A stretch of DNA of 64,000 bases, taken from positions 1 to 64,000 of the IMG/VR virus record IMGVR_UViG_3300021600_000393; one strand, written 5' to 3'. This document shows, piece after piece, positions 44,301-63,518 of this stretch. The first letter of the stretch is position 1, and the number at the start of each line of letters is the position of its first letter. Made by a program: the position numbers and the translations under genes. The DNA is from a virus (Duplodnaviria; Caudoviricetes). Below the pieces are notes generated by a model. That model worked only from the letters and a program-made list of their open reading frames with translations, searched no databases and had not been told where the DNA came from.

Positions 44301-46247
44301 ACTAGATGTTCTCCAAGCTAAATTTTCAATTGAAAACATGTATTTTTTAACCGATTTTTGTCCATTACTATTAACAACAATATTTGTAGACTCAGTCCCA
44401 GCCGCTCCATTCATTGGAGCAATATTTAAATTATATGTATTATCTAAAACCGAATTTGTAAAACGTCTGTTTTTTGTTGTTATACCATCTGTTTTTTGTA
44501 AATCAGCATATGTAAAATATGGAGTATCTTTAGCAAATACTCTACCATATTCAAACCCTTTTTGAATCCCGGTAGTGTTATCTTTGTATCTTAAAATCTT
44601 AGAACCTTTAGTTATTTCTTTATACCCATCATTAAAAACTTTACTTACTTGATTAATCGCATTACCAACATGTTTTAATCTAGTAATACCGTTAACGTTA
44701 TCCGCAGAATCAATAAGTCTTTGAGTGTTATCTAAAATTGAACTTGATTTAAATTTTATGTTTGTTGATTCATTTTTAAAATAATCACTTGATATTTGAT
44801 TAAATTGTTTATCAACAGGGCCAGGTCCTCCACCAATTGTTGGTGCAAAACCAGCTGCGTTTTTATATCTTGGAGAAACCCAGACAAATTCACCTCCAAT
44901 ACCCCCACCATCAGTTAATGATTTACCAGCTAAACCAAAATTAAGTCTACCTATATTACCTTCATATAAATTACTTAACTCCGTTGGACCATAAACTGGT
45001 GACGACACTTGACGCCCAAAAATGTTTATAGGTATTTGATTTCCTGGTGAAGTAATTAAACTAGGTTCGGCATTTGCGCTACCAACATAGTAACCACCAG
45101 TTGGGTCTCCAAGAAACTTTAAGGCGGTATTAATTGCTTTTAAAGTTGCCCCGACAATACCACCTGCGGTTCTATCTAACGATGGTTTATATCGATTTAA
45201 ATCAATATTTGAAAATAAACTTGATTTTTGTCCGTCCCCAGTATTTGCTATAAAAATTTGTGAAGGATTTCTAATTGTATTTAACGCTCCGGATATAATC
45301 CCACCTGTTAATTGATTTAAAGAATTTAATATTAAAGAACCTTGTATTGCTGACGCACCAAGAAATAAATTAGGTGTAAAATAATCACCAGGAATTGGTG
45401 ATGTTGGATAAAACTCACCGTTCAATCTTGTTTTTAAATTTGTTTGAAAACTACTTTGGTTTTCTGGAACAGTAATTGACCAATTTTTATAAATTAATTG
45501 TTGTTTACCAGTCGCTAATGAACTTGTTTGATTTGGGTCTTTTAATGATTGTAACGTATTTTTACCAAAATTGTTACGGGATAATTCAGCGTCAGCTCTA
45601 ACTTTAAATAAACCTTGTAAATAACTTCCCCCTAACTTAGCAATAAATGAATCGCTAGATAATGCTCCATCACTACCATTTGGATTTTTATTATTAAATA
45701 TTTCAGACGAAGTATATGTTGAAGGAACAAAACTTGGAGGCCCCCAATAATTTTCATAAAGTTTATTATTATTTTGAATGTCGGTTATTGTTACCATATT
45801 TTGATAACCACCCGTTGGACCATAAACATTTTCATTATATGATAAATCAATAAAGAACTCATTTAATAAGTCCATTTTTGTGTCTTTTGGGCTATATTCA
45901 CCTTGATTTGAATTAATAGGTAATGGAGCTCCATTATATGTAATGTCAATGTTATAACCACCCTCAGGGCCATATTGATTTAAAGGAAATAATTTTTTTG
46001 CAAACGGGTCTTCCGCAATATAAGAATCCGGAGAATCGATAACTGGTGAATCAGTAAGAATTGTTTCGTAATTTAAATTTCCAACTGAAGGTGAAAAAAC
46101 TCCAACAACTTTATACGCCGCAAGGTTTTTTCCAACTAATAAATCCCTAAATGTTTTTGTAGACGCAAAAGATAAAAAACTTTTACCCGGAGAACCAATT
46201 GAGTTCTGACCGTTTGTTACGCTATTTGGTATACCTTCAACCGCCAT
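41349..46247 (-). CDS. Tail-tube-initiator-like baseplate protein with inserted OmpA-like peptidoglycan-binding domain
   Basis: FPPYDISFSE...FLGRPEPIYTY..TTRTGTLSW and PPILVLRIGD...PMIAKITM (tube-fold motifs) flank FYFDND...VGSAS....YNLTLSKNRVDSI...CRRVVI (OmpA_C motifs). Sits right after the tape measure gene. Confidence 0.65.
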   Translation of the reverse strand: MAVEGIPNSVTNGQNSIGSPGKSFLSFASTKTFRDLLVGKNLAAYKVVGVFSPSVGNLNYETILTDSPVIDSPDSYIAEDPFAKKLFPLNQYGPEGGYNIDITYNGAPLPINSNQGEYSPKDTKMDLLNEFFIDLSYNENVYGPTGGYQNMVTITDIQNNNKLYENYWGPPSFVPSTYTSSEIFNNKNPNGSDGALSSDSFIAKLGGSYLQGLFKVRADAELSRNNFGKNTLQSLKDPNQTSSLATGKQQLIYKNWSITVPENQSSFQTNLKTRLNGEFYPTSPIPGDYFTPNLFLGASAIQGSLILNSLNQLTGGIISGALNTIRNPSQIFIANTGDGQKSSLFSNIDLNRYKPSLDRTAGGIVGATLKAINTALKFLGDPTGGYYVGSANAEPSLITSPGNQIPINIFGRQVSSPVYGPTELSNLYEGNIGRLNFGLAGKSLTDGGGIGGEFVWVSPRYKNAAGFAPTIGGGPGPVDKQFNQISSDYFKNESTNIKFKSSSILDNTQRLIDSADNVNGITRLKHVGNAINQVSKVFNDGYKEITKGSKILRYKDNTTGIQKGFEYGRVFAKDTPYFTYADLQKTDGITTKNRRFTNSVLDNTYNLNIAPMNGAAGTESTNIVVNSNGQKSVKKYMFSIENLAWRTSSRDGFTYDQLPAEEKGQNGGRVMWFPPYDISFSETSNPSFTPTSFLGRPEPIYTYKETTRTGTLSWKIIVDHPSILNLIVKKQLQNADSERVNSIVESFFAGCAKFDIIELAKRFPYVESKDLVTYQEILSKPGVSVEQITEIVKETKTEETTIGPKTNDSFNDYKSLGFYFDNDVGAGNYLTLFNTYTGRSGTYETFSKNFTGFNKNTTQFFENIIVNNFKQIDKTIGNPDKNLMSDLETYLIKKQGEVKITFVGSASALADDKYNLTLSKNRVDSIETYFKTSSKTFQEALLDGSLEITFDSKGESEKNVTPKGGTGDFGNNITCTDLQTPKDAQVYSVSAMACRRVVISDISAKDYSKTIKEENVVEKSKIGIKKTPILPKVIGITSKLKEGIAKKIIRGLLNEASYFEMIEENSPMVYASIKEKIKHFNPAFHSMTPEGLNSRLTFLQQCVRPGDTIPVIGPDGKPKFNDALNTSFGTPPILVLRIGDFYNTKIVPTQFGIQYDPLLFDLNPEGIGVQPMIAKITMAFNFIGGSGLQRPIEQLQNALSFNYYANTEIYDERAVPTEDTSAMDMEFFNSIVKGEIKTDVNNIASQINNNGGTTIGQILTTKSNAVGSNGDISYKNIMDLLFDDTKTYYTNLLNQLEIIVKTYNLDILELFRKDRLFIEGTVLTGGQKTKIFGKPKPEIGTNINDLFTSVYTDIDKSSNPIIGGILEKMQNISGTTLKIIKDNMKTYIKDKVQSNFSNSIQQIIQNLSTQQESLVQDIRKINLISEKTDGIIIGGGNIRIYNLEGTDDITKPAKQGINNTLDELKSDFDNFGKNVLKFYGDQGLGIGSLYLKITRNENPPIAKAFYSVIVQTLKNKKNEFRANVLGVLLKDVKKYKKEIQAFDSSLNNVSTIYITKFDNEIKEFGKRKESVKKEFIDKLSQNTYVKGPIRKFTYTTVPIAEDSDQKKKIKDLYATQNPNVDTTTFDGKIKFN

Positions 46248-49479: not shown

Positions 49480-49968
49480 TTAGTAAACTAATATACAACG
49501 GTCCATTCTTAATTCAGTAGTAATTGTTGCTAATTTATCAGAATCATACCCAAGGGCTCCAAAATCAGCACTAGTTAAAAAACAACCTTCTAAAATCCAT
49601 TTTTCAACTACAACACCTGTTGGGTCCAACATTTCAAGGTCAACATTTTTTTTATATCCTGCGGCATAACCCATACGACCTGTAACGGATTCTGCACATA
49701 ATCTAACCCATTCCATTAATGCTTGAGACGCTGAAGGACCTATAGGGTCTCTAAACGTAACCGAAATTGGTGACCATTCAAATCTACCAGCAACATAAGT
49801 TGATGTGTTTAAAAAAGGAATTGGGGTTGAGTTAATTTTTATGCTAGGTCTTTTTGCGGCTTCAACAAACCATTCGTTTATACCTAACGTTGAAGGAAAA
49901 CGCATAATAAACCTGTTAGCTCTTTTTGGTTCATACGGTATGGGCATTTTCATTAATAAATCGGCCAT
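49480..49968 (-). CDS. gp19: Tail tube protein (T4 gp19-like)
   Basis: YEPKRANRF, YVAGRFEWSPISVTFRD, LMEW, YKKNVDLEMLDPTGVVVEKWILEGCF. Downstream of the sheath gene. Confidence 0.9.
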   Translation of the reverse strand: MADLLMKMPIPYEPKRANRFIMRFPSTLGINEWFVEAAKRPSIKINSTPIPFLNTSTYVAGRFEWSPISVTFRDPIGPSASQALMEWVRLCAESVTGRMGYAAGYKKNVDLEMLDPTGVVVEKWILEGCFLTSADFGALGYDSDKLATITTELRMDRCILVY

Positions 49969-51004: not shown

Positions 51005-54000
51005 TTATATATTCTCAAACGATGCTCCAGTTGGAGTAATGTAAAAGGTTATGTCAATAAATTCAAGTGACTTAGTTGGTTTGATATAAATCTTACCAGT
51101 CAATTGATTTCTATCTAAATCAGCTGCGTCTGAAGAAACTGTTACACGAAAATCGTATAAACCTCTATCTCTTCTAATCGCGTCTAAAATTGGATTAACC
51201 GCGTCTAAGAAATCTTGTCTTACTTTAGCGTCATTTTGTTCAAATAATAATCTAACAGAAACTGCTGATATTAATTTACGAGCTTGTAATAACAATCTTC
51301 TTACGTTTATTCTATCAAGTGCGGATTCTCTAATTTGTAAAGTTTTATTTCCCCAAATAACAGTTCCAACATCAGAAAAAGTTGCAATTGGATTGATTCT
51401 ACCTTTATATAAAGTATCTCTATCCTCTTGTGTTAATTTTTTTCTTGCTTTGATAGCGTTTACTAAACCACGTGTATAACCAGCCGCTGCGAACCAAGGG
51501 AACGCAATGTTATCGGTTAACGCTAAGTTTCTTGTAACCTCAGCGGTAGGTGGTAGGTAAATTTGAGTGTTATTAACACTATCTCTAGTTAAAACCCAAG
51601 GGTAATAAGTTGCGGTGTAGTTAGAGTCAATTCCAGTACCTTCTAAATTATCAACCGATTCTTGTGGGTAAATAATATCAGTTGGTTCTCCAACTGTAGG
51701 ACTAAATAAATTATAATCTGGTGTTGTACAAATATATAATGAATCAGCTCTATCAAATTCAATCATTTGAATTGCTCCTTCAACTAAATCAGAATTATTT
51801 AAATAATCAATACCAGGAGTCACAAATAAATTAATATTAACCGCCTCAGGATTAGAAAATGTATTAATACCTAAAAGATAAGCATAATAGTCAGAATTAC
51901 CATATTCAATTGTGTTGTCACCAACAGTAATTTGTTTAAACGCTCCCCAACCTGTTGCTGTAGGATATTTAATTGACGGACAAGCTCCTTTTAAATAACC
52001 ACCTCGACCTAAAACAAATCTATCAGCGTTAGTTCTATATTCTCTGTAAATATCCCAACCGTCAAAACCTCCTATACAAAGTAAAGTAAATTTACGAGAA
52101 AATAATCTATAATATTGGTTTGACTCATTTACAGGGTCTGTTGTAAAAGATGATGCTCCAACAAAAAACAAAGGAGTTCCACTTGTAGTGTAATTACTAG
52201 ATATTGTTAATGCACTTGCGTTAACATCCATATGATAACCTCTTGTTTTATACGCCCAATCGTCACCAGTGCTATCTGAACAAACACTAAGAGGTAATTG
52301 TTTACCTTTGTATTGTAAGAAATCAGTATCAACTCCAACTGAATCAGATATACCTAAATAAGTTCTTCTTACTTTATCACCGTTACTTCTGATTGCGTCA
52401 TCAGCTCCTGATGCCAAACCAAATGGTGGATTGTAAACTACTTCCCCAGGAAAATCGTACTTTGTTTTATAAACTGGGAATGGAGGTCTTACACCAGCAT
52501 ATTCTCTATATTGGAAACCTTCAAATCCACAAGGTAACGCGTCAACCGGAGCGTCATCATTCATTTCAACCATTACTAATTTAGAATTTAATGTGTATTC
52601 TCCGTTTTTAGTTCCTATTTTTTTCCCAATAAATCCATTATCATTAGGGTTCATATTACAATTTGTAAATTTTTCTAACACAACTGGTGCTTCGTCACTA
52701 TCAAAGAAATCTCTAATTAATACGTCAAAATTACCATTACCAAATGATATATTTGCAATTGAAATTTTAATTTCAGTGTTAGCAGCGTCACCATCAGCAA
52801 TTGTTGTAAATTTAAATAAATTAGAAACTTTATTTCCTCTTAATTCAGAAACTACCCAAGGTGATGTTGGTGATTGATATTGTTCTAAATACCAACCAAT
52901 ACTTGTTGGGTCTGAACCTTGTCTTGCATCTGGTAAATAAGTTAAGTTAGAACTTACACCTCTAATATATCCTTTTCTATAACCATATGTTAATAATGCC
53001 CCAAATTGTTCTTCAACAAATAAAGGTACCGTAGTCCTCGGTTTTGAAAAATTAGACGCTCCAAAAACTTTTGATACATAATTAACATCAGAAATTTGAA
53101 AAGAAGTTTCAAAAAATAAATTATTACCGTCTTTATCAGTAATATTAACACCAAAAGTTGAAAAAGGATTTTTAGATGCTCCAGAATAAGAACTTGAAAA
53201 ATCTAAAGTCATTCCAGTTTGTCCGGTAACTTGATATACTGCCCCAGTATCGGTAGAGTAAGTCGCTAACCCTCTTGACCTCATTGTTGCAATAACTAAA
53301 TCATCATAATTTAAGTAAGGTGTTCCTGAATAAATGTATAATGTTCCATTAACAGTTCCACTAAAGTTAGTAATTATAATTCCGTTATTATTATTTCCAG
53401 TATTACCTGTCACACAAGGATTACAAGGGTCACTAATTTCAACATTTACTGTCCAACTTTCAGTTACCGTAGTATCTTCTGACACTAAAACGTATGTTTT
53501 TGTTAAACCGGTAAAATTAACGGTACTTCCGGTAGAGTATTGTGTTACAGAATTAAGAGTTACCCCTGTTGTACAAGCACTAAATGTAACCGTTAAAGCG
53601 GATAAATCATTAATAGTTGTTGCTGAAGGAAGACAAAATGAAATAGTATTTGTGTTGTGGTTAATATTACCACTATAAGTACTACCACTAAGAGCGGATG
53701 ATGCTCCACTAACTGAAAACGAATAAAACGTAGCACAATTTGATGAAGTGGATGTTTGAGTTAAACCTGAAATATAATTATAAAACGAATAACCGCTATA
53801 TGTACCATTACCATTATTATCAAATAATGCATAATACCAAGGGTCGTTATTTGGGTCATTAAAATTAGCATTTCCTGAATTAACATAATCTAAATTAAAG
53901 ACATTTGTTGACGCTGTATAACCACTTAATGAATTATAATCGGTTTGAGGTATAACACCAAAATATTTTATAGAATAGTTCTCAGTATTGTTATTAGATA

Positions 54001-54589
54001 TTACACCATAAATTTGATTTTTTAAATCTGAACTTAATGTTGATGTTGTACCGTTAAATTGTTGATAAGTAGAATTTAAGTCTTCATTTAATAACCAAGG
54101 AAATGTTTCTGTAAAATCTACCGAAGTAACATTATCATTATTCCCTGTAAAAGAAACTGAATAAGCGTATTCTTCATATTCAACACAACTTTCAACACAA
54201 TCAACTGTTGATGAACTAAAACAGTTTTGACCAACAGTAGTTGTATCAACGTTTGCAACAGTCGTTATACTCCAAGATGGACCGGCGTCATAACCAGATA
54301 AACCCAAAACTCTCGTAACAAATAATTGGTTTGATTGTTGTAAATAAGATTTAGCTATATAAGCAGCTTCATATTTAGGGATTTGTGTGTTTATGAATTT
54401 TTCGGCGGATGTTCCACCAAAATACGTTGAAAATTCATCAAAATTTGTGATGAAAATAGGTTCAAAAGCGGGACCTTTTAATGTCTCACCAACAATACCT
54501 AAAGTTGTAACGCCAACACTTTGCGCAACAAAACTCAAATCAACTTCCGAGGTATATACTCCCGGGGACACGAATACTTTATTTGCCAT
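51005..54589 (-). CDS. gp18: Tail sheath protein (T4 gp18-like) with large insertion
   Basis: FVSPGVYTSEVDLS, GETLKGPAFEP, TYYPWV, PWFAAAGYTRG, INPI, IWGNKTLQ, RINVRRLL and IKPTKSLEFI motifs. Confidence 0.95.
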   Translation of the reverse strand: MANKVFVSPGVYTSEVDLSFVAQSVGVTTLGIVGETLKGPAFEPIFITNFDEFSTYFGGTSAEKFINTQIPKYEAAYIAKSYLQQSNQLFVTRVLGLSGYDAGPSWSITTVANVDTTTVGQNCFSSSTVDCVESCVEYEEYAYSVSFTGNNDNVTSVDFTETFPWLLNEDLNSTYQQFNGTTSTLSSDLKNQIYGVISNNNTENYSIKYFGVIPQTDYNSLSGYTASTNVFNLDYVNSGNANFNDPNNDPWYYALFDNNGNGTYSGYSFYNYISGLTQTSTSSNCATFYSFSVSGASSALSGSTYSGNINHNTNTISFCLPSATTINDLSALTVTFSACTTGVTLNSVTQYSTGSTVNFTGLTKTYVLVSEDTTVTESWTVNVEISDPCNPCVTGNTGNNNNGIIITNFSGTVNGTLYIYSGTPYLNYDDLVIATMRSRGLATYSTDTGAVYQVTGQTGMTLDFSSSYSGASKNPFSTFGVNITDKDGNNLFFETSFQISDVNYVSKVFGASNFSKPRTTVPLFVEEQFGALLTYGYRKGYIRGVSSNLTYLPDARQGSDPTSIGWYLEQYQSPTSPWVVSELRGNKVSNLFKFTTIADGDAANTEIKISIANISFGNGNFDVLIRDFFDSDEAPVVLEKFTNCNMNPNDNGFIGKKIGTKNGEYTLNSKLVMVEMNDDAPVDALPCGFEGFQYREYAGVRPPFPVYKTKYDFPGEVVYNPPFGLASGADDAIRSNGDKVRRTYLGISDSVGVDTDFLQYKGKQLPLSVCSDSTGDDWAYKTRGYHMDVNASALTISSNYTTSGTPLFFVGASSFTTDPVNESNQYYRLFSRKFTLLCIGGFDGWDIYREYRTNADRFVLGRGGYLKGACPSIKYPTATGWGAFKQITVGDNTIEYGNSDYYAYLLGINTFSNPEAVNINLFVTPGIDYLNNSDLVEGAIQMIEFDRADSLYICTTPDYNLFSPTVGEPTDIIYPQESVDNLEGTGIDSNYTATYYPWVLTRDSVNNTQIYLPPTAEVTRNLALTDNIAFPWFAAAGYTRGLVNAIKARKKLTQEDRDTLYKGRINPIATFSDVGTVIWGNKTLQIRESALDRINVRRLLLQARKLISAVSVRLLFEQNDAKVRQDFLDAVNPILDAIRRDRGLYDFRVTVSSDAADLDRNQLTGKIYIKPTKSLEFIDITFYITPTGASFENI

Positions 54590-55909: not shown

Positions 55910-56511
55910 TACATATCTTTTTTAACCCAATTATAAAATAATTCAGATATTTCTTTTGGGTTTGTTATATTTTCATTTTTTAACATCATTCTAACTTGAC
56001 TAATTAACCCAACAAAATGTTCTGGTGGTACATTTTTATAAAAACCCTCAAAATTTGCTTCGTTTGGTTTAATTATTCCAAATTTAACAAATTCTCTTAA
56101 TTTTCTTTTTGCAAATTCATCGGCAACGGTTTCTATTTTTTTCATAAAAATTGCGGCTTCAATCAAACTAATATTACCTAAATAGCACTCATACATTTTT
56201 TCAGCACCGTATTTTTTAAATTGATATTGATGAGCGATTTCGTGAAATAATATAAATAAAAAATTTGGTAAACTATTGTTAAATATCGTTGAATTTAATA
56301 TTACCCTATCATCTAAAGAAACTCCCATCCCCATTTTTAATGGTTCAACTGTTATCTTTTGACATTCAGAATTTTCTATAAATTTATTTATTTTTTCAAT
56401 TTGGGTATCATCAATATTAAAATTATCTTTAATTTGTGACAAAAAAATGTCAATACCTAAAGTTTCTTCGGTAATTAAATTATATTGTATTTTATTAATT
56501 TTATATCTCAT
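55909..56511 (-). CDS. Zincin-like metallopeptidase (HExxH)
   Basis: FILFHEIAHQYQ plus downstream ETVADEFA third-ligand motif, as in ImmA/IrrE-like peptidases. Confidence 0.7.
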   Translation of the reverse strand: MRYKINKIQYNLITEETLGIDIFLSQIKDNFNIDDTQIEKINKFIENSECQKITVEPLKMGMGVSLDDRVILNSTIFNNSLPNFLFILFHEIAHQYQFKKYGAEKMYECYLGNISLIEAAIFMKKIETVADEFAKRKLREFVKFGIIKPNEANFEGFYKNVPPEHFVGLISQVRMMLKNENITNPKEISELFYNWVKKDM

Positions 56512-56927
56512 AAAAATCTATATTCAAATTCATTATAAGTTACCGTCTTAACAGGTAAATTAAAATAAAATTTAAACCATTCTTTCATTGGTTCCTTCCA
56601 ATGATGACTAAACACAGAATTTAAATGTTCAGCGTATTTACCTTGAACTTCTAAAATTGGTGATTTATCTCTAAATGGTTTATGTGATTCGTCATTTTTA
56701 TTGTAGTAATCAACATCAAAATAATAAAAAATAACATCTGAATCTTCATCGCCTTCCCAATCTCCATTGTAAAATATTAAAAAATTTTCGGTTTCTTCTG
56801 GTTCATTATATTCATTTTCAGCATCAACAGCACCATATGTCCAATTAATTTTATTACCCTCAAGATAATCATCGATATATTTACTGATTACATCGTGTAA
56901 TTTATTTTCACTTATAATTGTTTTCAT
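56508..56927 (-). CDS. Hypothetical protein
   Basis: 139-aa acidic ORF coupled to its neighbours. Confidence 0.65.
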   Translation of the reverse strand: MKTIISENKLHDVISKYIDDYLEGNKINWTYGAVDAENEYNEPEETENFLIFYNGDWEGDEDSDVIFYYFDVDYYNKNDESHKPFRDKSPILEVQGKYAEHLNSVFSHHWKEPMKEWFKFYFNLPVKTVTYNEFEYRFL

Positions 56928-57439
56928 TATAATCCTCTAAATTCATTATCAACAACTGCTGACGCAGTTATTGTCCTATAAAATGGTTTGTATCCCGCAT
57001 AATTATGTTTATTGTCAGATATTACTCTACCGTCATTATTAACCGTATAGTATCTTACGCGGTCTTCAGTTTCATAATAACCAATATAATCACCATAACT
57101 AATATCTATATTTAATTCATCAAGTTGTTTTTGATACACAGAAACAGTTAAATTTCCAGGTTCAAGTTGTTCTATTTTTGAAGTGCCGTAAGTTTTATTT
57201 TCTGGGGCCACTATTTTAACATACCCCTTAAATTCAACCGGAGGTAAAAATTTAATTCCATCGGAAACGGATTCGCCGTAAACATTATCTGTTTTAGTTT
57301 TCATTCGGTCAATCCTATATAAAACCAATGTAAAATTTAAATCACCATAAAGCCACTCAGAACCTACTGACGTGTCTAAATCAAAATCTTCTTGTGAAAA
57401 AAATTTACCTAACCTTGTTATTGGTACTTTGTTAACCAT
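56927..57439 (-). CDS. Neck/head-closure protein (T4 gp14-like)
   Basis: DNVYGE....KF..PVE and GDYI motifs, in neck/tail context. Confidence 0.6.
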   Translation of the reverse strand: MVNKVPITRLGKFFSQEDFDLDTSVGSEWLYGDLNFTLVLYRIDRMKTKTDNVYGESVSDGIKFLPPVEFKGYVKIVAPENKTYGTSKIEQLEPGNLTVSVYQKQLDELNIDISYGDYIGYYETEDRVRYYTVNNDGRVISDNKHNYAGYKPFYRTITASAVVDNEFRGL

Positions 57440-57478
57440 TATTGATAAATATTAGAATAAGCCTTATTTTTCATTTAA

Positions 57479-59236
57479 TTGACATCAATAAAAAATAATA
57501 CAATTGAACAAAAACCATTATCAATTCTAACTGATTATAATGGGGCTAATAATTATATTATTAATTTAAAAATAAAAAAAGAAAGTAATAATAAATTTTA
57601 TTTAACCCCTTCTCAATCCGAATATTTAATTAATTATTCAAAAATAATTCCAAAAGTCGCAAAAAAATGGGTGGACATTGACCCTTATTTTGCAAAAAAA
57701 ATTGCCGACGAAAAACTATTAACTTTTATACCTGAAAAAATTTGGGTTGAAAAATTACTTGTTGAAAAAGAAAAATCTTATCATATTTGGGGAAAAATTT
57801 TATCGGGAGATACAAATTACGATTTTTGGTTACCAAAAGGAGCTTTTATTAAAACCCACGTAATTAAAGATGTAAAAATTGATTATAATAAATACTCTAA
57901 TAGGTTTCCACTTGAACATCAAAAAATAGCGATTGAAAAATTGGCAGGGTCGTCAAGGTTTATTCTTGCGGACGACATGGGGTTGGGTAAAACTCTAAGT
58001 GCGGTAATAGCCGCGTTGGAAACAAATGAAAAAAGAATTTTGGTAGTTTGTCCTGCAACGCTTAAAATAAATTGGAGAAGAGAATTTGAATTTTTTACAA
58101 AAAAAACAATTTTTATTGCGGAAAGTAAAACATTTTCTGACGACGCTGACATTGTGATTGTTAATTATGATATACTTAAAAATTTTCACAATCCAAAAAA
58201 CATCAAGGAGTCTAAAATATACGATAAGTTTGATATAATAATTGCGGACGAATGTCATTATGTGTCTAACCCTCAATCAAAACGAACTAAAATATTTAAC
58301 CATTTTGCAAAAAAATCAAAGTATCTATGGTTATTGTCAGGAACTCCAATGACTAATCGTCCAATTAATTATTTTAATTTACTTTCCCTTATTGATAGTC
58401 CAGTTGCTCAAAATTGGGTAGGTTATGCGGTTCGTTATTGCGAGGGGTACCAATTTAACGCCGGAGGTCGTAAAATATGGAATGTGTCTGGAGCATCTAA
58501 TTTAGAAGAATTAAGAGAAAGAACATCAAGACAATTTTTAAGACGATTGAAGACGGAAGTTTTAGAGTTACCTGAAAAAATAATAACCCCAATTTATTTA
58601 AAATTAAAATCAAAATTGTACGAAAACTTAATGGGCGAATATTATGATTGGTACGATAATAAAAAAGAAGAGTCAACATCACTTACAATTCAATTTAGTA
58701 AATTAATGAAAGTAAGGCAAGTTATCGCCGAAGAAAAAATAAATAACACGATTGAATTAGCACAAAATATAATTGACCAAGACAAAAAAGTTATTATTTT
58801 TACAAATTTTACAGACACGTTAAATAGAATTGCTGACCATTTTGGTAAACAATCGGTTAGGTTAGATGGTTCAACCCCAAAATTAAAAAGACAAGAATCC
58901 GTGGACCAATTTCAAGAAAATGAAAAAGTAAAAGTCTTTGTTGGTAATATGAGAGCTGCCGGAGTTGGAATAACTTTAACATCGGCAGAAGCGGTTATTA
59001 TTAACGATTTGTCTTTTGTTCCTGGGGAATTATCTCAAGCTGAAGACAGAGCTTATAGGTACGGTCAAAAAAACAACGTTTTAGTTTACTATCCAATATT
59101 TCATAATACTATTGAAGGGGGGATATATGATATTGTTGTAAATAAAAAACAAATCATTGATACTGTGATGGGTGATAATTTAGATAAAAGCGACGTTGTT
59201 GCTGAAATCATGAACAGAATACAAGAAAAAAGATAA
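57479..59236 (+). CDS. SNF2-family helicase (HARP/SMARCAL1-like)
   Basis: LADDMGLGKT, DECH box, LSGTPMTNRP, RRLK, GVGITLT and QAEDRAYRYGQ motifs. Confidence 0.92.
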   Translation: MTSIKNNTIEQKPLSILTDYNGANNYIINLKIKKESNNKFYLTPSQSEYLINYSKIIPKVAKKWVDIDPYFAKKIADEKLLTFIPEKIWVEKLLVEKEKSYHIWGKILSGDTNYDFWLPKGAFIKTHVIKDVKIDYNKYSNRFPLEHQKIAIEKLAGSSRFILADDMGLGKTLSAVIAALETNEKRILVVCPATLKINWRREFEFFTKKTIFIAESKTFSDDADIVIVNYDILKNFHNPKNIKESKIYDKFDIIIADECHYVSNPQSKRTKIFNHFAKKSKYLWLLSGTPMTNRPINYFNLLSLIDSPVAQNWVGYAVRYCEGYQFNAGGRKIWNVSGASNLEELRERTSRQFLRRLKTEVLELPEKIITPIYLKLKSKLYENLMGEYYDWYDNKKEESTSLTIQFSKLMKVRQVIAEEKINNTIELAQNIIDQDKKVIIFTNFTDTLNRIADHFGKQSVRLDGSTPKLKRQESVDQFQENEKVKVFVGNMRAAGVGITLTSAEAVIINDLSFVPGELSQAEDRAYRYGQKNNVLVYYPIFHNTIEGGIYDIVVNKKQIIDTVMGDNLDKSDVVAEIMNRIQEKR

Positions 59237-59270
59237 GGTACCTGTTATTAACAATTACAGTCCCTTGTAA

Positions 59271-59277
59271 TATTTAT
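59271..59277 (+). promoter_or_regulatory. TATTTAT putative phage late promoter (SOD fusion)
   Basis: Recurrent motif 5 nt upstream of the ATG, in the plus orientation matching the gene. Confidence 0.6.
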
Positions 59278-59282
59278 TGTAA

Positions 59283-60833
59283 ATGGAAAAATTAAAATTA
59301 AAATCACAAAAGATTGAAAAACAAATCTTATTAGCCGAAAAACAAGACGTTAAAGAAACCCTTATTACCGAAATGAAAAAAATCGGTATTGAAAAATTAC
59401 CCTATTCGTACACTTCTTTAAAAAAATTTATTGACTCTGAAACAATGTCAATACATTATAATCGTCATTATAAAAATTATGTTGAAAAATTAAACAAACT
59501 AATTTCTAAAAAAGATTATCCAGATATGGAACTCGAAGAAATTGTTAAATCTATTAGTCGATTTAATAAAGGGGTTAGAAATAATGCAGGTGGGGCGTTT
59601 AATCACGCTTTGTTTTGGAAAATGTTGTCTCCAACAACTCAAGAACCTAATGGTGAAGTATTAGAAAGAATTAAAAAAGATTTTGGAACTTATAAAAGTT
59701 TTGTTAATATGTTTCAAAACGCAGCAAAAGAAAGATTTGGTTCTGGATGGGTTTGGTTGGTTTTAACTAAAAATAACGTATTAAAAATACTTTCGACTGA
59801 AAACCAAGACAATCCGTTAATGAATGTTGTGAAAGATGGCGGATACCCAATATTAGGGTTAGATTTATGGGAACACGCGTATTATTTAAAATATCGAAAT
59901 AAAAGAGACGAATACGTTACTAATTTTTGGAAATGTGTAAATTGGGAATTTGTTAATTCACTTTATAATTCAAGATTAAAGAAAAAAATTAATGAAACAG
60001 AAAATTTACGTAAACTTATTTCTGAAACAAAATCAAATACTTGTAGTTGGCCAGAGGTTGAAGCGATTAGGTTTATTTTTAATAACAATCCAAATATTAA
60101 ATATATGTACAGAACGGCTATAGATATAATTTTATCTGAAGTTTTTCCTGAACATTATTATAAAGAAAATGAGTATGAACCAAACAGTTTATATGGAATT
60201 TATGATTTAGAACAACCTGGAAGGTCAGGAATAAATAAATTAAACACTAATTATAACACTTTTTGTACCTTACTTAAAGATATAAATCTTGTTATTACCC
60301 GTGAAAAAGGAAGTGACCCAATAAATAAAATAAATATTGTTGGTGTTAAACCATTTGAACAAATATTACAAACTAAAAAATTTATTGAATATTTAAACGA
60401 ATATAAATTTCGAATCTTTTCAAGAAATTCAGAAACATTTAATAATTTAATGGTAATTTTAAAAGAAAAAGACTCTATTGGTGAAAAAAGAGAATCGTCA
60501 GTTGTCAAAAAACTTAAAGAAATTTATGGCGAAGACAACGTAATAAAAGTAGGTGAATTAGGTAGTAAAAGAGACACTAAAGATGGTGTGGATTGTGAAA
60601 TAATTATAAATGGGGAGGTATTAACAGCTCAAATAAAACCATTTTTAAAAGCTGAAGATATCGGGGAAAATTTTAAAATGCACAATACTGGAAATGTAAA
60701 ACCTTACAAAACAAATTTTATTATTTTTTCAACAATGAGTAATAAAATAATGGTATTTAAAAATGATGATATCACAATTAAAAATGGTAATTATATAATA
60801 CCAAAGAAAAATTTAATTCATAATATTTATTAG
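59283..60833 (+). CDS. sodA: Fe/Mn superoxide dismutase (Mn-type signature) fused to a C-terminal PD-(D/E)xK-like domain
   Basis: LPYSY, HYNRHY, NAGGAFNHALFW, FGSGWVWL, NQDNP and DLWEHAYY motifs. About 280 extra C-terminal aa with GEKRE...DGVDC...AQIK. Confidence 0.88.
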   Translation: MEKLKLKSQKIEKQILLAEKQDVKETLITEMKKIGIEKLPYSYTSLKKFIDSETMSIHYNRHYKNYVEKLNKLISKKDYPDMELEEIVKSISRFNKGVRNNAGGAFNHALFWKMLSPTTQEPNGEVLERIKKDFGTYKSFVNMFQNAAKERFGSGWVWLVLTKNNVLKILSTENQDNPLMNVVKDGGYPILGLDLWEHAYYLKYRNKRDEYVTNFWKCVNWEFVNSLYNSRLKKKINETENLRKLISETKSNTCSWPEVEAIRFIFNNNPNIKYMYRTAIDIILSEVFPEHYYKENEYEPNSLYGIYDLEQPGRSGINKLNTNYNTFCTLLKDINLVITREKGSDPINKINIVGVKPFEQILQTKKFIEYLNEYKFRIFSRNSETFNNLMVILKEKDSIGEKRESSVVKKLKEIYGEDNVIKVGELGSKRDTKDGVDCEIIINGEVLTAQIKPFLKAEDIGENFKMHNTGNVKPYKTNFIIFSTMSNKIMVFKNDDITIKNGNYIIPKKNLIHNIY

Positions 60834-60834
60834 T

Positions 60835-61974
60835 ATGTTAAATATTAAATTGTCAAAAAAACAATTAAAAGTTTTAGTTGAAGATATAAATAACAATATC
60901 GATTACACATATCGACTTTGCAAACAATCAGTTGACAAAAAAATTAACTCCTCCCCTTGGTGCGAATTAAAAAATATAAGTTATCGAGCGTCAGATGTTT
61001 TAAACAAACAATTACAGGAAACTTTAAAAACCTTACTTGATTTTTTTCCTAGACATCATACAGGTATTTTACCTAACATTATTAAAATTTCACAACAAGA
61101 CCAAAATAGAACTATTTCGTTTTTAAAAACAATTGCCGATTTTATAAACGACCCATTGTTTAGTGATGACCAAAGTAAAAAAACATTACAAAATTTTAAA
61201 AATCTTGATGAAATACCAAGTGATTTAGAAGACCTTTTAAAAGTTGTAAGAGCTAAAGAATATTCAAATTATGAAAATTCTTTTGTTGGGAACGAATTTA
61301 CACTCAAACGAGGAATGTTAAAACTAGATTACAAATGTGGCGATTTAACTGAAACTAAAAATTTTTTTGAAATAATTAAAAAAATTAATCAAGATTCTAA
61401 TTTAGCATCTGAATATTGTACAAAAATTATTGAATGTGTAAAATCTTCAATAAATAACATAAACATTCCGCAAAAAGGAGATTTAATTACTAATTCACCA
61501 TTATACGTTATTGAAAATGGGGTTAATAAAAAGATTTTTGATGCCAATTCTTTTTTTGAAGTTAAAAAAATGGATGTCGAAATTGATAGTTACCTTTCAG
61601 AATTTTTTTCTATTTTTAAAAAAACAGATTTAAAAAGTTTAAAACCGGAGTATATTCAAACATATAATAAAGTAATGTCAGTATTATATATGTGGATTAA
61701 ATCTAATGGAAATGAATTTTTAAATAATGTAAGAAAATCACTTAATGGAATAATTTATGATAAAAACATAATTGTTCCAACAGAAAATATTGAATTTTAT
61801 TGGTCAAATAAAGGACAACGAGGTTGTGATGAATTAAGACTTTCTATACGATTTAGAATTAAACCTCAAATCACAAAAATTAATGGTTACAAATACATTA
61901 ACGGGTCAAATATTCTTGAAAATTTTGTTTTTGATGTAAAACAAAAAGACACTGAGCAAATAATTTGTAAATAA
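60835..61974 (+). CDS. Hypothetical protein, possible PD-(D/E)xK-like fold
   Basis: 379 aa. KGDLI...FEVKK spacing is only suggestive. Has its own TATTTAT motif. Confidence 0.55.
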   Translation: MLNIKLSKKQLKVLVEDINNNIDYTYRLCKQSVDKKINSSPWCELKNISYRASDVLNKQLQETLKTLLDFFPRHHTGILPNIIKISQQDQNRTISFLKTIADFINDPLFSDDQSKKTLQNFKNLDEIPSDLEDLLKVVRAKEYSNYENSFVGNEFTLKRGMLKLDYKCGDLTETKNFFEIIKKINQDSNLASEYCTKIIECVKSSINNINIPQKGDLITNSPLYVIENGVNKKIFDANSFFEVKKMDVEIDSYLSEFFSIFKKTDLKSLKPEYIQTYNKVMSVLYMWIKSNGNEFLNNVRKSLNGIIYDKNIIVPTENIEFYWSNKGQRGCDELRLSIRFRIKPQITKINGYKYINGSNILENFVFDVKQKDTEQIICK

Positions 61975-61997
61975 TCGAGAGTTTTCAATAACTTAAA

Positions 61998-62005
61998 TAT
62001 TTATA
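61998..62005 (+). promoter_or_regulatory. TATTTATA putative phage late promoter (neck gene)
   Basis: Recurrent motif upstream of the gp13-like start. Confidence 0.6.
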
Positions 62006-62018
62006 CAATAAATACTTT

Positions 62019-63146
62019 ATGTCAATTATCGCAGAACCGCAAAGAACGGAACTTTATACAAGATTGAGGCATTTACTTGGTGCTCCTCTTAGAAGTGTTG
62101 AATTAGAAGATGAGCAATTAGATTCTTTTTTACAATTATCGATTGATGATTATTCACAATATGTTCAAGACTGGTTAATTGACTCACAATGGGCATCTTT
62201 GGATAATCTTAATTTATCAACACAATCATTATCTAAAGCTTTTTTAACTAAAAGTTTAAATTATGAACAACGTTATTCCTACGCATATTCAAAAATAGTT
62301 GGGTTACAAGCCGGTGGAGATTCGGTCTTAAAAAAAGACTATATTGTTTTAGAAGCAAATCAACAAATTTATGAAATCCCAGCTGGGAGAGAAATTAATG
62401 AATTATTATGGTTTTCTCCATCGGAATTAAACAACGCAATGTTTGACCCTTGGTCTTTTGGGTCATTGGGAGCTGGTGGGGGATTAGGTGGTGGAGGTGG
62501 ATTGGCTCAACCGGCCGGTATGGGTGGTGGGTATTTTATGATGCCGGCATTTGATATGTTGTTAAGAATGCAAGAGATTAACATTCAACGAAGAATTATT
62601 GCCGGAGACTTAACATATAGAATAACCGCATTACCTGATGGTAAAAAAGCAATTCATTTAATGAACACTCCAGGTGGTAAATTTGATTTTGGTAACGGAA
62701 CTTTAACTAAAGGTAAAGTTTGGTATTGGTATTATGATGTTGGTCCAGACGATAGAGACAAATGTTTAAAAATGAATCCAGATATTATTAAATTACCATC
62801 AGACGTACCAATGGATAAAATTTACTGGGAAGAACTTAATAGTCCATCCCAAATTTGGATTCGTCGTTGGTTTTTTGCATACGCAAAAGAAGCTCTTGGA
62901 AGAATTCGTGGTAAATTTAGTGGTAATTTAAAAACGCCGGATAGTGAACTAACTATGGATTACGCATCGTTATTTACGGAAGCTAAAGATGAAAAACTTA
63001 AATTATTAGAAGAGTTAATTGGGGTTGAAGGTAGATTAACAAGACTAAGGCCAGAAAAAGTTATGGAAAGAGAGGCATTAATTGCAAAATCTTTAAACGA
63101 CCAAATGAAATTTAGAGCGTTTCCAAGACAAATTTATGTAATTTAA
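62019..63146 (+). CDS. gp13: Neck protein (T4 gp13-like head-tail adaptor)
   Basis: LGAPLRSVELEDEQLD and WIRRWFFAYAKEALGRIRGKF...EAKDE motifs. Confidence 0.8.
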   Translation: MSIIAEPQRTELYTRLRHLLGAPLRSVELEDEQLDSFLQLSIDDYSQYVQDWLIDSQWASLDNLNLSTQSLSKAFLTKSLNYEQRYSYAYSKIVGLQAGGDSVLKKDYIVLEANQQIYEIPAGREINELLWFSPSELNNAMFDPWSFGSLGAGGGLGGGGGLAQPAGMGGGYFMMPAFDMLLRMQEINIQRRIIAGDLTYRITALPDGKKAIHLMNTPGGKFDFGNGTLTKGKVWYWYYDVGPDDRDKCLKMNPDIIKLPSDVPMDKIYWEELNSPSQIWIRRWFFAYAKEALGRIRGKFSGNLKTPDSELTMDYASLFTEAKDEKLKLLEELIGVEGRLTRLRPEKVMEREALIAKSLNDQMKFRAFPRQIYVI

Positions 63147-63158
63147 AAAAATAAAAAT

Positions 63159-63518
63159 ATGAGTATAATTAAAAAAGGGAATTTTATAAGAAAAACAATT
63201 GGTGAAAAACAATTTAAAGTTGATTCTGCTGTAGATGAAGGTAAAAAATTTATAACTGAAGAAGTTTATAATACTAATGGTGAGTATCTGTTAGTGATAA
63301 AAAACGTTGACACATGTAGAGTTACTTTAGATTCGGACACAACTGACCATATTATAATTAAAGCGTTAACAGGGACCTATATTGTTCCAAAACAAGGGTT
63401 AATTGATGACCAATATGGTGAAATTTTTATTGATAAAGGAGCGTGTGTTGAATTTTATTCGTTAGAAAATCAATGGTTTATTGTATCTTCAGATGGACTT
63501 AAACTAGACGAAAACTAA
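63159..63518 (+). CDS. Hypothetical protein
   Basis: 119-aa ORF downstream of the neck gene. Confidence 0.6.
   Translation: MSIIKKGNFIRKTIGEKQFKVDSAVDEGKKFITEEVYNTNGEYLLVIKNVDTCRVTLDSDTTDHIIIKALTGTYIVPKQGLIDDQYGEIFIDKGACVEFYSLENQWFIVSSDGLKLDEN

Follow-up and report, generated by a model that had tools for sequence, protein, structure and literature searches.

A superoxide dismutase joined to a predicted PD-(D/E)xK nuclease-like domain in T4-like phages, with conserved (L/I)-x-E motifs at its joints

In a 64,000-nucleotide stretch of phage DNA (positions 1 to 64,000 of IMG/VR record IMGVR_UViG_3300021600_000393; the window in what follows) we found a gene, at 59283..60833 on the plus strand, whose product joins an Fe/Mn superoxide dismutase (SOD) to a C-terminal domain (CTD) of 265 aa, the last ~120 aa of which are predicted to form a nuclease-like core of the PD-(D/E)xK fold. 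The fusion recurs in 73 distinct sequences and is one among many SOD architectures that occupy a variable gene slot in a clade of T4-like phages. Both joints of the protein carry conserved (L/I)-x-E tripeptides that resemble sites cut by the T4 prohead protease, and the reading we favor, to which we give somewhat less than an even chance, is that of a processed, capsid-packaged polyprotein made up of an SOD and a nuclease-like protein. Viral SODs and phage-packaged enzymes are already known; a phage SOD joined to a nuclease-like domain is, as far as listings and abstracts of the literature show, undescribed. The gene is laid out as follows, with residues numbered as in the full-length protein.

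59283..60833, plus strand: whole gene (leader, SOD, linker, CTD), an open reading frame (ORF) of 516 aa plus stop with an ATG start
59271..59277, plus strand: TATTTAT motif, 6 nt before the ATG, a candidate late-gene signal with putative promoter function
59283..59372, plus strand: leader, aa 1-30, a predicted helix ending in I28-T29-E30
59373..59966, plus strand: Fe/Mn SOD, aa 31-228, assigned from Pfam, a solved-structure alignment and invariant ligands
59967..60047, plus strand: linker, aa 229-255, with I236-N237-E238 (59988-59996) and I246-S247-E248 (60018-60026)
60048..60470, plus strand: N-subdomain of the CTD, aa 256-396, mostly helical, in a model with a predicted local distance difference test score (pLDDT) of 94.2
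60471..60830, plus strand: PD-(D/E)xK nuclease-like core of the CTD, aa 397-516, assigned from fold matches and conserved residues
60492-60494 (E404), 60591-60593 (D437), 60630-60632 (Q450) and 60636-60638 (K452), plus strand: putative active-site codons

The fused protein and its spread

A sequence-only reading of the window had described a complete SOD with all four metal ligands followed by a nuclease-like domain, and the first half of this description holds without change. Pfam recognizes both SOD domains well above the gathering cut-offs, Sod_Fe_N (PF00081) at aa 37-116 (E 9.2e-22, 77.8 bits, cut-off 27) and Sod_Fe_C (PF02777) at aa 122-226 (E 1.3e-38, 131.6 bits, cut-off 20.9). The metal ligands H58, H108, D194, and H198 are the same in all 48 fused homologs compared, and all four positions are retained in the alignment with the best solved-structure match, S. 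aureus SodA (5n56, E 3e-59). This alignment begins at residue 5 of 5n56, so that M31 occupies the position of Met1 of a free SOD. The top solved matches of the SOD part are mostly Mn or Mn/Fe enzymes, the NCBIfam scores are 1.3e-54 for the Mn model and 5.6e-51 for the Fe model, both far under the equivalog cut-offs, and the protein has GG and NQD signatures that we take to be of the Mn type. As judged from its sequence, the SOD is intact and probably active, and may be of the Mn type.

An exhaustive search with aa 243-516 as the query (E<=0.001) placed the CTD in a family of 154 representative clusters, mostly stand-alone proteins of 240-300 aa. Among 67 diverse members, aligned with a mean column identity of 20%, residues G400, D437, Q450, and K452 are invariant and S315, E404, D431, G435, and Y475 are at least 90% conserved. 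The three motifs from which a nuclease had been proposed are all present (GEKRE, aa 400-404; DTKDGVDC, aa 431-438; TAQIKP, aa 448-453). AlphaFold2 run on the 67-member alignment gave a CTD model with a pLDDT of 94.2 and a predicted template modeling score (pTM) of 0.88, and a fold search matched model residues 155-274, equivalent to aa 397-516, to PD-(D/E)xK nucleases. By VIA-align, the matches are headed by the resolvase Hjc (2wcw; Z 8.0, root-mean-square deviation (rmsd) 3.6, 102 residues aligned), I-Ssp6803I (2ost; Z 7.5), NhoI (Z 7.1), and HhaI (Z 6.8), with DpnI, PvuII, tRNA-splicing endonucleases, and others below them; 18 chains reach Z>=5 against the core, and nearly all are nucleases of the PD-(D/E)xK fold. 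Taken singly, each match at Z 7-8 falls in the "middling" range of the fold-search tool, and the fold assignment carries weight because the list of matches is uniform and the motif is conserved. Foldseek also gave 2ost_C as its best match (E 7.9e-4, probability 1.00).

In the predicted structure E404 is on a long helix (384-415), D437 stands at the start of a strand (438-442), and Q450-x-K452 lies on a further strand (445-453), an arrangement that may correspond to the one in PD-(D/E)xK nucleases, where the first helix bears an acidic residue, a strand opens with an Asp, and the x-K pair is on the next strand. The QxK that replaces (D/E)xK is presumably the Mrr-type variant. The modeled core is shared with Hjc, I-Ssp6803I, NhoI/HhaI/DpnI/PvuII, and Mrr/NOV_C-type proteins over ~100-108 aligned residues at Z 6-8 and rmsd 3.1-4.0, and the CTD differs from these known nucleases in its 11-16% sequence identity (3% for NhoI), in belonging to none of their sequence profiles, in an extra 140-aa helical N-subdomain, and in the strands that follow the core. 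The model and the conservation, with E...D...QxK invariant or at least 90% conserved in the 67 members, support the prediction that aa 397-516 are a PD-(D/E)xK nuclease core of the restriction-endonuclease/Hjc-like kind, as the earlier reading had expected for this end of the protein.

That reading had also called the domain Mrr-like, a description that stands at the level of the fold and fails at the level of sequence profiles, where no Mrr model of Pfam matches the window's protein. Indeed, Pfam finds no family in aa 243-516 at E<=0.1; PHROGs gives no match to any part of the protein; NCBIfam and PADLOC give none to the CTD; and the best E value of the CTD profile against PDB sequences is 0.22. 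Among the 67 members, Pfam matches to MjaI, Mrr_cat_2 (0.0045), and EcoO109I occur in one member each. ESM-Atlas offered NOV_C, BpuJI_N, and Mrr_cat at 0.80-0.83, which, being under 0.9, we treat as leads only; all are restriction-endonuclease-like. The N-subdomain (aa 256-396) is covered by few rows of the fold search and has no Pfam, PHROG, NCBIfam, or PADLOC match. Two long proteins represent further architectures of the CTD family. In the 1151-aa protein P0121, CTD residues 197-248 are matched 11 times over, in separate stretches, as if a beta-hairpin with the QxK motif were repeated, and a 1113-aa marine-phage protein (BFVD A0A8D9CCA0) contains the whole CTD.

The fused gene is widespread. 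The 64 homologs found with the CTD region comprise 44 with both SOD Pfam domains, 5 with the SOD C-domain only, which are short and probably truncated, and 15 with neither. A scan of viral contigs gave 473 confirmed relatives, and the best 80 loci, on contigs of up to 322 kb, all hold a near-full-length fused gene, with matches starting at aa 1, 2 or 11. From 157 CTD-anchored loci we obtained 155 complete ORFs and 92 unique proteins, of which 73 are fused, 17 stand alone, and 2 are of 479 aa. At the level of DNA, the exact joint is present in 14 runs from 11 studies; some of the near-identical ones may come from the source sample, so that not all are independent. Two contigs, 13,586 and 3,874 bases long, carry 59100-61100 uninterrupted, with neither joints nor indels, and a contig from an RNA library (X16 record 14, one RNA run) spans 59918-60068; 60172-60439 and the region beyond 60775 are uncovered by RNA-library contigs.

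An assembly or frame artefact, for which the region 59960-60030 had been singled out, is therefore excluded by DNA and RNA-library sequence across it and by 73 unique fused proteins on many independent viral contigs. The second of the two earlier proposals, a new SOD-nuclease fusion, is borne out as far as the gene and a predicted nuclease-like fold are concerned. Existing annotation passes over the second domain. The one annotation that a fused homolog in BFVD carries is "superoxide dismutase", and in database records fused proteins go by no other names than "Fe-Mn family superoxide dismutase" and "hypothetical protein". A tblastn search of phages with the full protein matched only the SOD part, and of the 31 matched records none of the 30 listed extends over the CTD.

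The variable slot and the joints

The fused gene occupies a position of conserved synteny in which an SNF2 helicase gene is followed by one or more variable genes, then by a neck/adaptor-like gene and a 119-aa gene. In the window the neighbors are the following.

57479..59236, plus strand: SNF2-family helicase, upstream neighbor and left border of the slot (Pfam SNF2-rel_dom 1.2e-27, Helicase_C 2.7e-18)
60835..61974, plus strand: 379-aa downstream gene, part of the same modular slot, with TATTTAT at -11
62019..63146, plus strand: neck/head-tail-adaptor-like gene, right border of the slot (phrog_211 head-tail adaptor Ad2, E 2.2e-9)

The slot was sampled through the neck-like gene, independently of the CTD, which gave 79 loci with the slot covered. 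By tblastn these were 38 fused, 32 with SOD and no CTD, and 9 with CTD only. The CTD profile revealed divergent CTDs in five distinct "SOD-only" proteins (L198, L224, L245, L248, L249), and a further locus, L254, whose slot ORFs had been deduplicated with those of L249, was added to the CTD-positive loci. The final tally is 44 loci with SOD and CTD, 26 with SOD and no detectable CTD, and 9 with CTD only, which makes the SOD the most constant element of the slot (70 of 79 loci), the CTD being present in 53.

The 26 loci with SOD and no detectable CTD, duplicates among which were classed by gap size, show what else the SOD can be joined to. In 8 the SOD has only its leader (257-262 aa); 13 have an SOD flanked by two other domains, X-SOD-Y (693-701 aa, but in one locus divided into 602+78 aa); in 3 a protein of 507 aa joins X-SOD to one of a family of tandem 149-aa paralogs; and 2 have X-SOD alone (363/364 aa). 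A still longer arrangement is found in L245, a single 911-aa ORF of leader, SOD, CTD-like and 379-like parts, the last of which is homologous to the separate 379-aa gene of the window (37% identity, E 2e-51). The partner domains X, Y, 149-like, and 379-like have no meaningful family. Loss is also recorded, since the 309-aa proteins of L097 and L098 retain the leader, nine residues from the start of the SOD, and the last part of the linker, a deletion scar from which we conclude that the SOD was lost from a fused ancestor. No separate SOD gene was found in the SOD-less genomes G003 (100% complete, carrying the scar form) and G004.

It had been suggested that relatives might carry the two halves as separate genes. 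They do occur apart, in the 26 loci with SOD and no CTD and the 9 with CTD only, and in none of the 157 CTD-anchored loci is the SOD a separate neighboring gene. Fused, split, deleted (scar-bearing), and re-partnered forms have thus all been sampled at the slot, and even if the protein is never cleaved the locus is a clear natural case of domain shuffling around one enzyme.

Some smaller features of the slot are recorded here. At L205:3931-5978 the X-SOD-Y protein is split into ORFs of 602 aa and 78 aa, which may reflect a frameshift, a stop, or a sequencing error. L195:2047-5964 and L196:2483-5964 hold tandem arrays of four or five 148-151-aa paralogs that start M-K-I-I-I-(T/S)-E-S-Q-Y. The 379-aa gene has no family in Pfam, PHROGs, NCBIfam or PADLOC. 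The longest ORF of the SNF2 helicase begins at a TTG and an ATG-only call begins at 57977, so that its true start is uncertain.

The Lys/Glu-rich linker quoted in the sequence-only reading, LKKKINETENLRKLISETK, is found at aa 232-250. Across the 73 fused proteins the (L/I)-x-E motif is conserved at E30 in 71 (the Glu itself in 72), at E238 in 68 (the Glu itself in all 73), and at E248 in 72. Per-column counts show that the conserved linker positions are the Glu and the P3 Leu/Ile, with P2 and the flanks varying. Four (L/I)-x-E sites are conserved in at least 90% of the fused proteins; three are in the two short joints and the fourth is the L-W-E-H of the SOD. By rough arithmetic that assumes uniform placement, the chance of finding three of four conserved sites within 28 of 516 residues is ~6e-4. 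In the full-length model (pLDDT 83.4, pTM 0.52) the pLDDT falls below 50 only at aa 21-31 and aa 235-251, i.e., at the two joints, and the pTM indicates that no fixed packing of SOD against CTD is predicted. Helices are predicted for residues 2-28 of the leader and for 221-248 in the linker region.

The same motifs accompany the SOD into its other architectures. In 24 of 24 proteins with sequence upstream of the SOD, (L/I)-x-E stands directly before (M/A)KK-I-G, and the leader adjoins the SOD even when it is internal, behind the ~130-aa X domain. As it precedes the SOD also in this position, the 30-aa leader is not an N-terminal signal. Downstream of the SOD there are one to three (L/I)-x-E sites whenever any domain follows, whatever that domain is, and the two X-SOD proteins (363/364 aa) that end after the SOD are without linker sites. 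The joint between the CTD-like and 379-like parts of L245 reads ...KTILITE↓TQKNILE↓A... (arrows here and below mark the bond after Glu), and so contains I-T-E and I-L-E.

Proposed prohead processing and its alternatives

The window has a G+C content of ~29% and encodes baseplate wedge, hub, tail tube, and sheath proteins, a class Ia ribonucleotide reductase (RNR), a DnaB-like helicase, and a UvsX-like recombinase, together with a single-stranded DNA-binding protein (SSB), an endonuclease VII homolog, and several giant ORFs, a gene content that identifies it as part of a T4-like myovirus. Cultured phages are only distant relatives (sheath ~31% identity), and the DNA of 57000-63500 has no match among 50,697 phage records. 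The window's record is 101 kb long and rated 34% complete; relatives of 318-322 kb are rated 100% complete. The sequencing runs that contain the sequence are labeled freshwater or lake water metagenomes.

A protease of the T4 gp21 family (Peptidase_S77) is encoded by all three complete relatives. In one of them, G001, the head module follows the T4 order: portal, two small genes, protease, a 318-aa gene, a 506-aa acidic protein, and the major capsid protein (MCP). Among 74 unique MCPs of the clade, (L/I)-x-E is conserved at E6, E23, E44, E51, and E60, and the remaining ~557 residues hold three sites. BLASTP aligns the clade's H-L-I-N-E60↓A-T-S with F-L-T-E65↓A-E-I of T4 gp23 (second segment, E 1e-5), and I-N-E is the tripeptide both at this MCP site and at E238. 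In T4, according to the text available of PMC9958956, 65 N-terminal residues of gp23 are removed by the prohead protease. From the part of PMC5694885 at hand, T4 Alt is cut at ITE-6 and LTE-619, the proteases of T4, phiKZ, and SPN3US all cut after Glu, and multiple sites per propeptide are usual. Since the MCP site I-N-E60 is aligned with the gp23 site and cleavage follows Glu, the clade's protease very probably has T4-type specificity, as far as sequence alignment can indicate. The MCP of G001 (L167:6692-8545) is larger than that of T4, 617 aa vs 521 aa, and when aligned to gp23 by BLASTP it shows a variable insertion beyond residue ~113 and a segment rich in Cys at ~325-335.

The upstream signal of the gene is one that it shares with virion genes. 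TATTTAT is the most enriched upstream 7-mer, occurring in 18 of 81 upstream regions against 2.3 expected, an 8-fold excess, and the genes concerned are mainly structural. It lies 5' of the gp25-like, tube (49480-49968), sheath (51005-54589), and neck-like (62019-63146) genes and of giant ORFs, as well as 5' of the fused gene, at -12, and of the 379-aa gene, and it is not upstream of the RNR, endonuclease VII, UvsX, or SSB genes; the late-type motif that had been noticed before the fused gene, at 59271-59277, is thus common to sheath, tube, and neck-like genes. The canonical T4 late promoter TATAAATA is not enriched, with 23 matches vs 21.3 expected. On this sequence pattern, (A)TATTTAT is a candidate late promoter or translation-start signal of the clade. 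The SNF2 helicase gene has no TATTTAT upstream.

The explanation we favor can now be set out. The SOD-CTD protein would be made together with the virion genes, as a modular late protein, and would enter the prohead, where the clade's T4-type protease would cut after E30, E238 and/or E248. Cleavage would free an SOD with a native-like N-terminus (M31) and a nuclease-like protein, both of which would remain inside the capsid and be delivered to the host along with the DNA, in the manner of Alt and the internal proteins of T4; the SOD would then reduce superoxide from the first moments of infection, with the nuclease-like protein acting on DNA. That a head protease cuts a late-expressed polyprotein had been suggested from the window alone, and the idea has gained circumstantial support: an (L/I)-x-E at every joint, flexible segments around these sites, Peptidase_S77 in all three complete relatives, the I-N-E↓A of the MCP, and the late-type motif. 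A virion context is further suggested by the neck-like gene nearby and by a CTD paralog in the head module of G001. If this cleavage model is true, oxidative stress at DNA entry is important enough that phages abundant in lakes bring an antioxidant enzyme with them, and a new family of packaged PD-(D/E)xK proteins would have to be recognized.

Several observations weigh against packaging and processing. Peptidase_S77 was not found in the window's 34%-complete record or in the 73%-complete G004, and the presence of the protease is taken over from relatives. TATTTAT also precedes the DnaB-like gene, and its position at -12, unusually near the ATG, would leave almost no 5' untranslated region if it were a T4-like late promoter. 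Motifs of the form (L/I)-x-E are common in a K/E/I/L-rich proteome, and with a linker that is predicted to be partly helical the conserved Leu/Ile could reflect helix packing. The stand-alone CTDs of L110, L113, L115, and L117 have neither a leader nor an (L/I)-x-E before the domain. A hidden Markov model of the leader, run against the 364 ORFs of G001, found the protein itself only (2.8e-10; next best 0.085), and a shared leader-type targeting sequence, common to many proteins as in the T4 internal proteins, is accordingly rejected. Finally, a CTD paralog in the head module, described below, is present in only one of the three complete genomes; G003 has a weaker second CTD copy (E 7.7e-12), among small paralogs elsewhere, and G002 has none.

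The main rival, which we take seriously without expecting it to prove right, is a bifunctional enzyme that remains uncleaved in the infected cell. The SOD might, for example, be anchored to DNA through a DNA-binding or nuclease-like domain and shield replicating phage DNA or the class Ia RNR from superoxide, the (L/I)-x-E motifs being helical-linker features inherited with the SOD module. Such an enzyme would account for a fusion that stays stable, with purifying selection, across 73 distinct sequences, for a leader and much of a linker that are predicted to be helical and of a composition in which (L/I)-x-E is frequent, for the failure to find a shared targeting leader, and for the presence of RNR, UvsX, and helicase genes in the same window; viral SODs are, moreover, generally read as cytoplasmic detoxifiers of reactive oxygen species (ROS) in what is available of PMC10583209. 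Several observations speak against an uncleaved enzyme. The partners of the SOD are interchangeable or absent, with 26 of 79 loci having SOD without CTD and 9 CTD without SOD, which argues against an obligatory SOD-CTD functional unit. It is the Glu and not the hydrophobic positions that are the most invariant residues of the linker. And the linker is absent when nothing follows the SOD, and the full-length model, with its pTM of 0.52, has no predicted interface.

The nature of the CTD allows two other explanations. One takes the CTD to be a selfish homing endonuclease (free-standing, of the I-Ssp6803I type) that settled between conserved genes, its fusion to the SOD being a by-product of mobility; this would explain the best Foldseek match (E 7.9e-4; Z 7.5) and the presence/absence polymorphism of the slot, and T4 itself has the free-standing segD and segE between head genes. 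We consider this very improbable. The CTD is in the same slot in 53 of 79 loci and has diverged alongside its flanks (45-60% identity for the CTD, 62-84% for the flanks), a pattern that looks like vertical descent and not like occasional insertion; what varies least in the slot is the SOD and not the CTD; an added helical subdomain of 140 aa and conserved in-frame joints are no features of homing endonucleases; and a CTD paralog lies in a head module. It is also conceivable, though improbable, that the CTD has a nuclease fold without nuclease activity and serves a structural, DNA-binding or regulatory role. The Z scores of 7-8 are "middling", the motif has a Gln as its third residue in place of Asp or Glu, and nuclease Pfam matches are lacking in the window's protein and confined to one of the 67 members for each of MjaI, Mrr_cat_2, and EcoO109I. 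Yet the putative active-site residues are the most conserved of a family whose mean column identity is 20%, the 18 chains that reach Z>=5 belong, with few exceptions, to nucleases of the PD-(D/E)xK fold, and the ESM-Atlas leads, each under 0.9, are all restriction-endonuclease-like.

Known systems, short tags, and further observations

The favored reading, packaging followed by cleavage, has its closest parallel in the Alt and IPI-III proteins of T4. The likenesses are a T4-type phage, proposed (L/I)-x-E cut sites as at ITE-6 and LTE-619 of Alt and at residue 65 of gp23 in the available accounts of these proteins, a gp21 homolog in the complete relatives, and a diverse enzymatic cargo behind short N-terminal peptides. 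The differences are that here each chain has two or three folded modules with internal sites, that the leader is unshared, and that packaging is here a proposal. Furthermore, the portions of the T4 literature consulted name neither an SOD nor a PD-(D/E)xK protein among the head proteins of T4.

A second parallel is with the polyvalent proteins (Iyer et al. 2017, PMC5512222) and the Dar proteins of phage P1, in which, going by the portion of that survey available, several unrelated domains are combined in one phage polypeptide beside late virion genes. Processing into separate units and delivery with the DNA have been proposed for polyvalent proteins, as in the cleavage model here, and an SNF2 ATPase, such as the one that adjoins the fused gene, is a frequent partner in that class (both from the same portion of PMC5512222). 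Unlike polyvalent proteins, the fused protein and its alternative architectures lack, by Pfam, the hallmark domains (a zincin-like MPTase or other peptidase, MuF, ART), and it is the prohead protease, acting in trans, that would do the processing. The word "superoxide" occurs 0 times in the same text of the survey.

Virus-encoded SODs include the Cu,Zn SODs of chloroviruses and megaviruses, which are single-domain and belong to a family unrelated to Fe/Mn SODs. Giant-virus SOD is thought to detoxify ROS early in infection, and the vaccinia A45R SOD-like protein is called a virion component in a title cited there (PMC10583209, as far as its text was available). Free-standing Fe/Mn SOD genes are found in records of Pseudomonas PA5oct-like and Vibrio jumbo phages, where they are single-domain, in contrast to the fusion described here. 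In listings and abstracts of the literature we found no phage SOD that is joined to a nuclease-like domain or has been put forward as cargo of the capsid.

The CTD paralog of the head module is a 318-aa protein of G001 (L167:4104-5060, plus strand, equivalent to G001:118104-119060; profile E 2.9e-33), whose gene has the prohead protease gene on one side and the scaffold-like and MCP genes on the other. The paralog retains the G..E, D..GxD, and QxK motifs and has an extra K/E-rich C-terminal tail of ~65 aa. Its start, M-K-I-T-I-S-E↓G, aligns with the end of the linker, K-L-I-(S/T)-E↓(T/G).

Short N-terminal tags ending in x-(I/L)-T-E are shared by ~30 ORFs of G001 whose proteins are otherwise unrelated and carry no annotation. 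The tags come in two flavors: M-K-K-x-I-R-L-T-E-S-D-L, found in 18 of 364 G001 ORFs against 0.93 expected, and M-K-(F/Y)-(L/I)-I-T-E, found in 17 G001 ORFs against 0-3 in size-matched inner windows. The tagged ORFs lie in loci L161-L177 (for instance L163:1107-1478, L167:16110-16604 on the minus strand, and L177:12370-13395 on the minus strand) and include the head-module CTD paralog. A similar tag forms the CTD-like/379-like joint of L245 and also heads the tandem 149-aa paralogs. Nine G001 proteins, tag-bearing ones among them, have no meaningful family. In the window's 101-kb record 1 of 81 ORFs is tagged, which is not above control; it is a 139-aa ORF at 56508-56927 on the minus strand that starts M-K-T-I-I-S-E-N and has no family match.

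A wider reading, which we regard as unlikely in this full form, is that the clade runs an enlarged version of the T4 internal-protein system, in which dozens of proteins and modules would be directed to the prohead by a tag that a gp21-type protease removes, and the tags of modules strung together would serve as linkers. The SOD-CTD protein would be one such string, and its phage the first known to load an active SOD and a nuclease into the capsid and to inject both with the DNA. If the cleavage model is true, the (L/I)-x-E tag would give a practical sequence rule by which the ejected proteome could be predicted for T4-like jumbo phages that have not been cultured.

No tRNA genes were found in the window. 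Its giant ORFs, all on the minus strand, are at 13545-21332 (2595 aa), 34110-41030 (2306 aa), and 41349-46247 (1632 aa); they have no PHROG match and are probably tail-fiber or baseplate-associated, because TATTTAT precedes two of the three.

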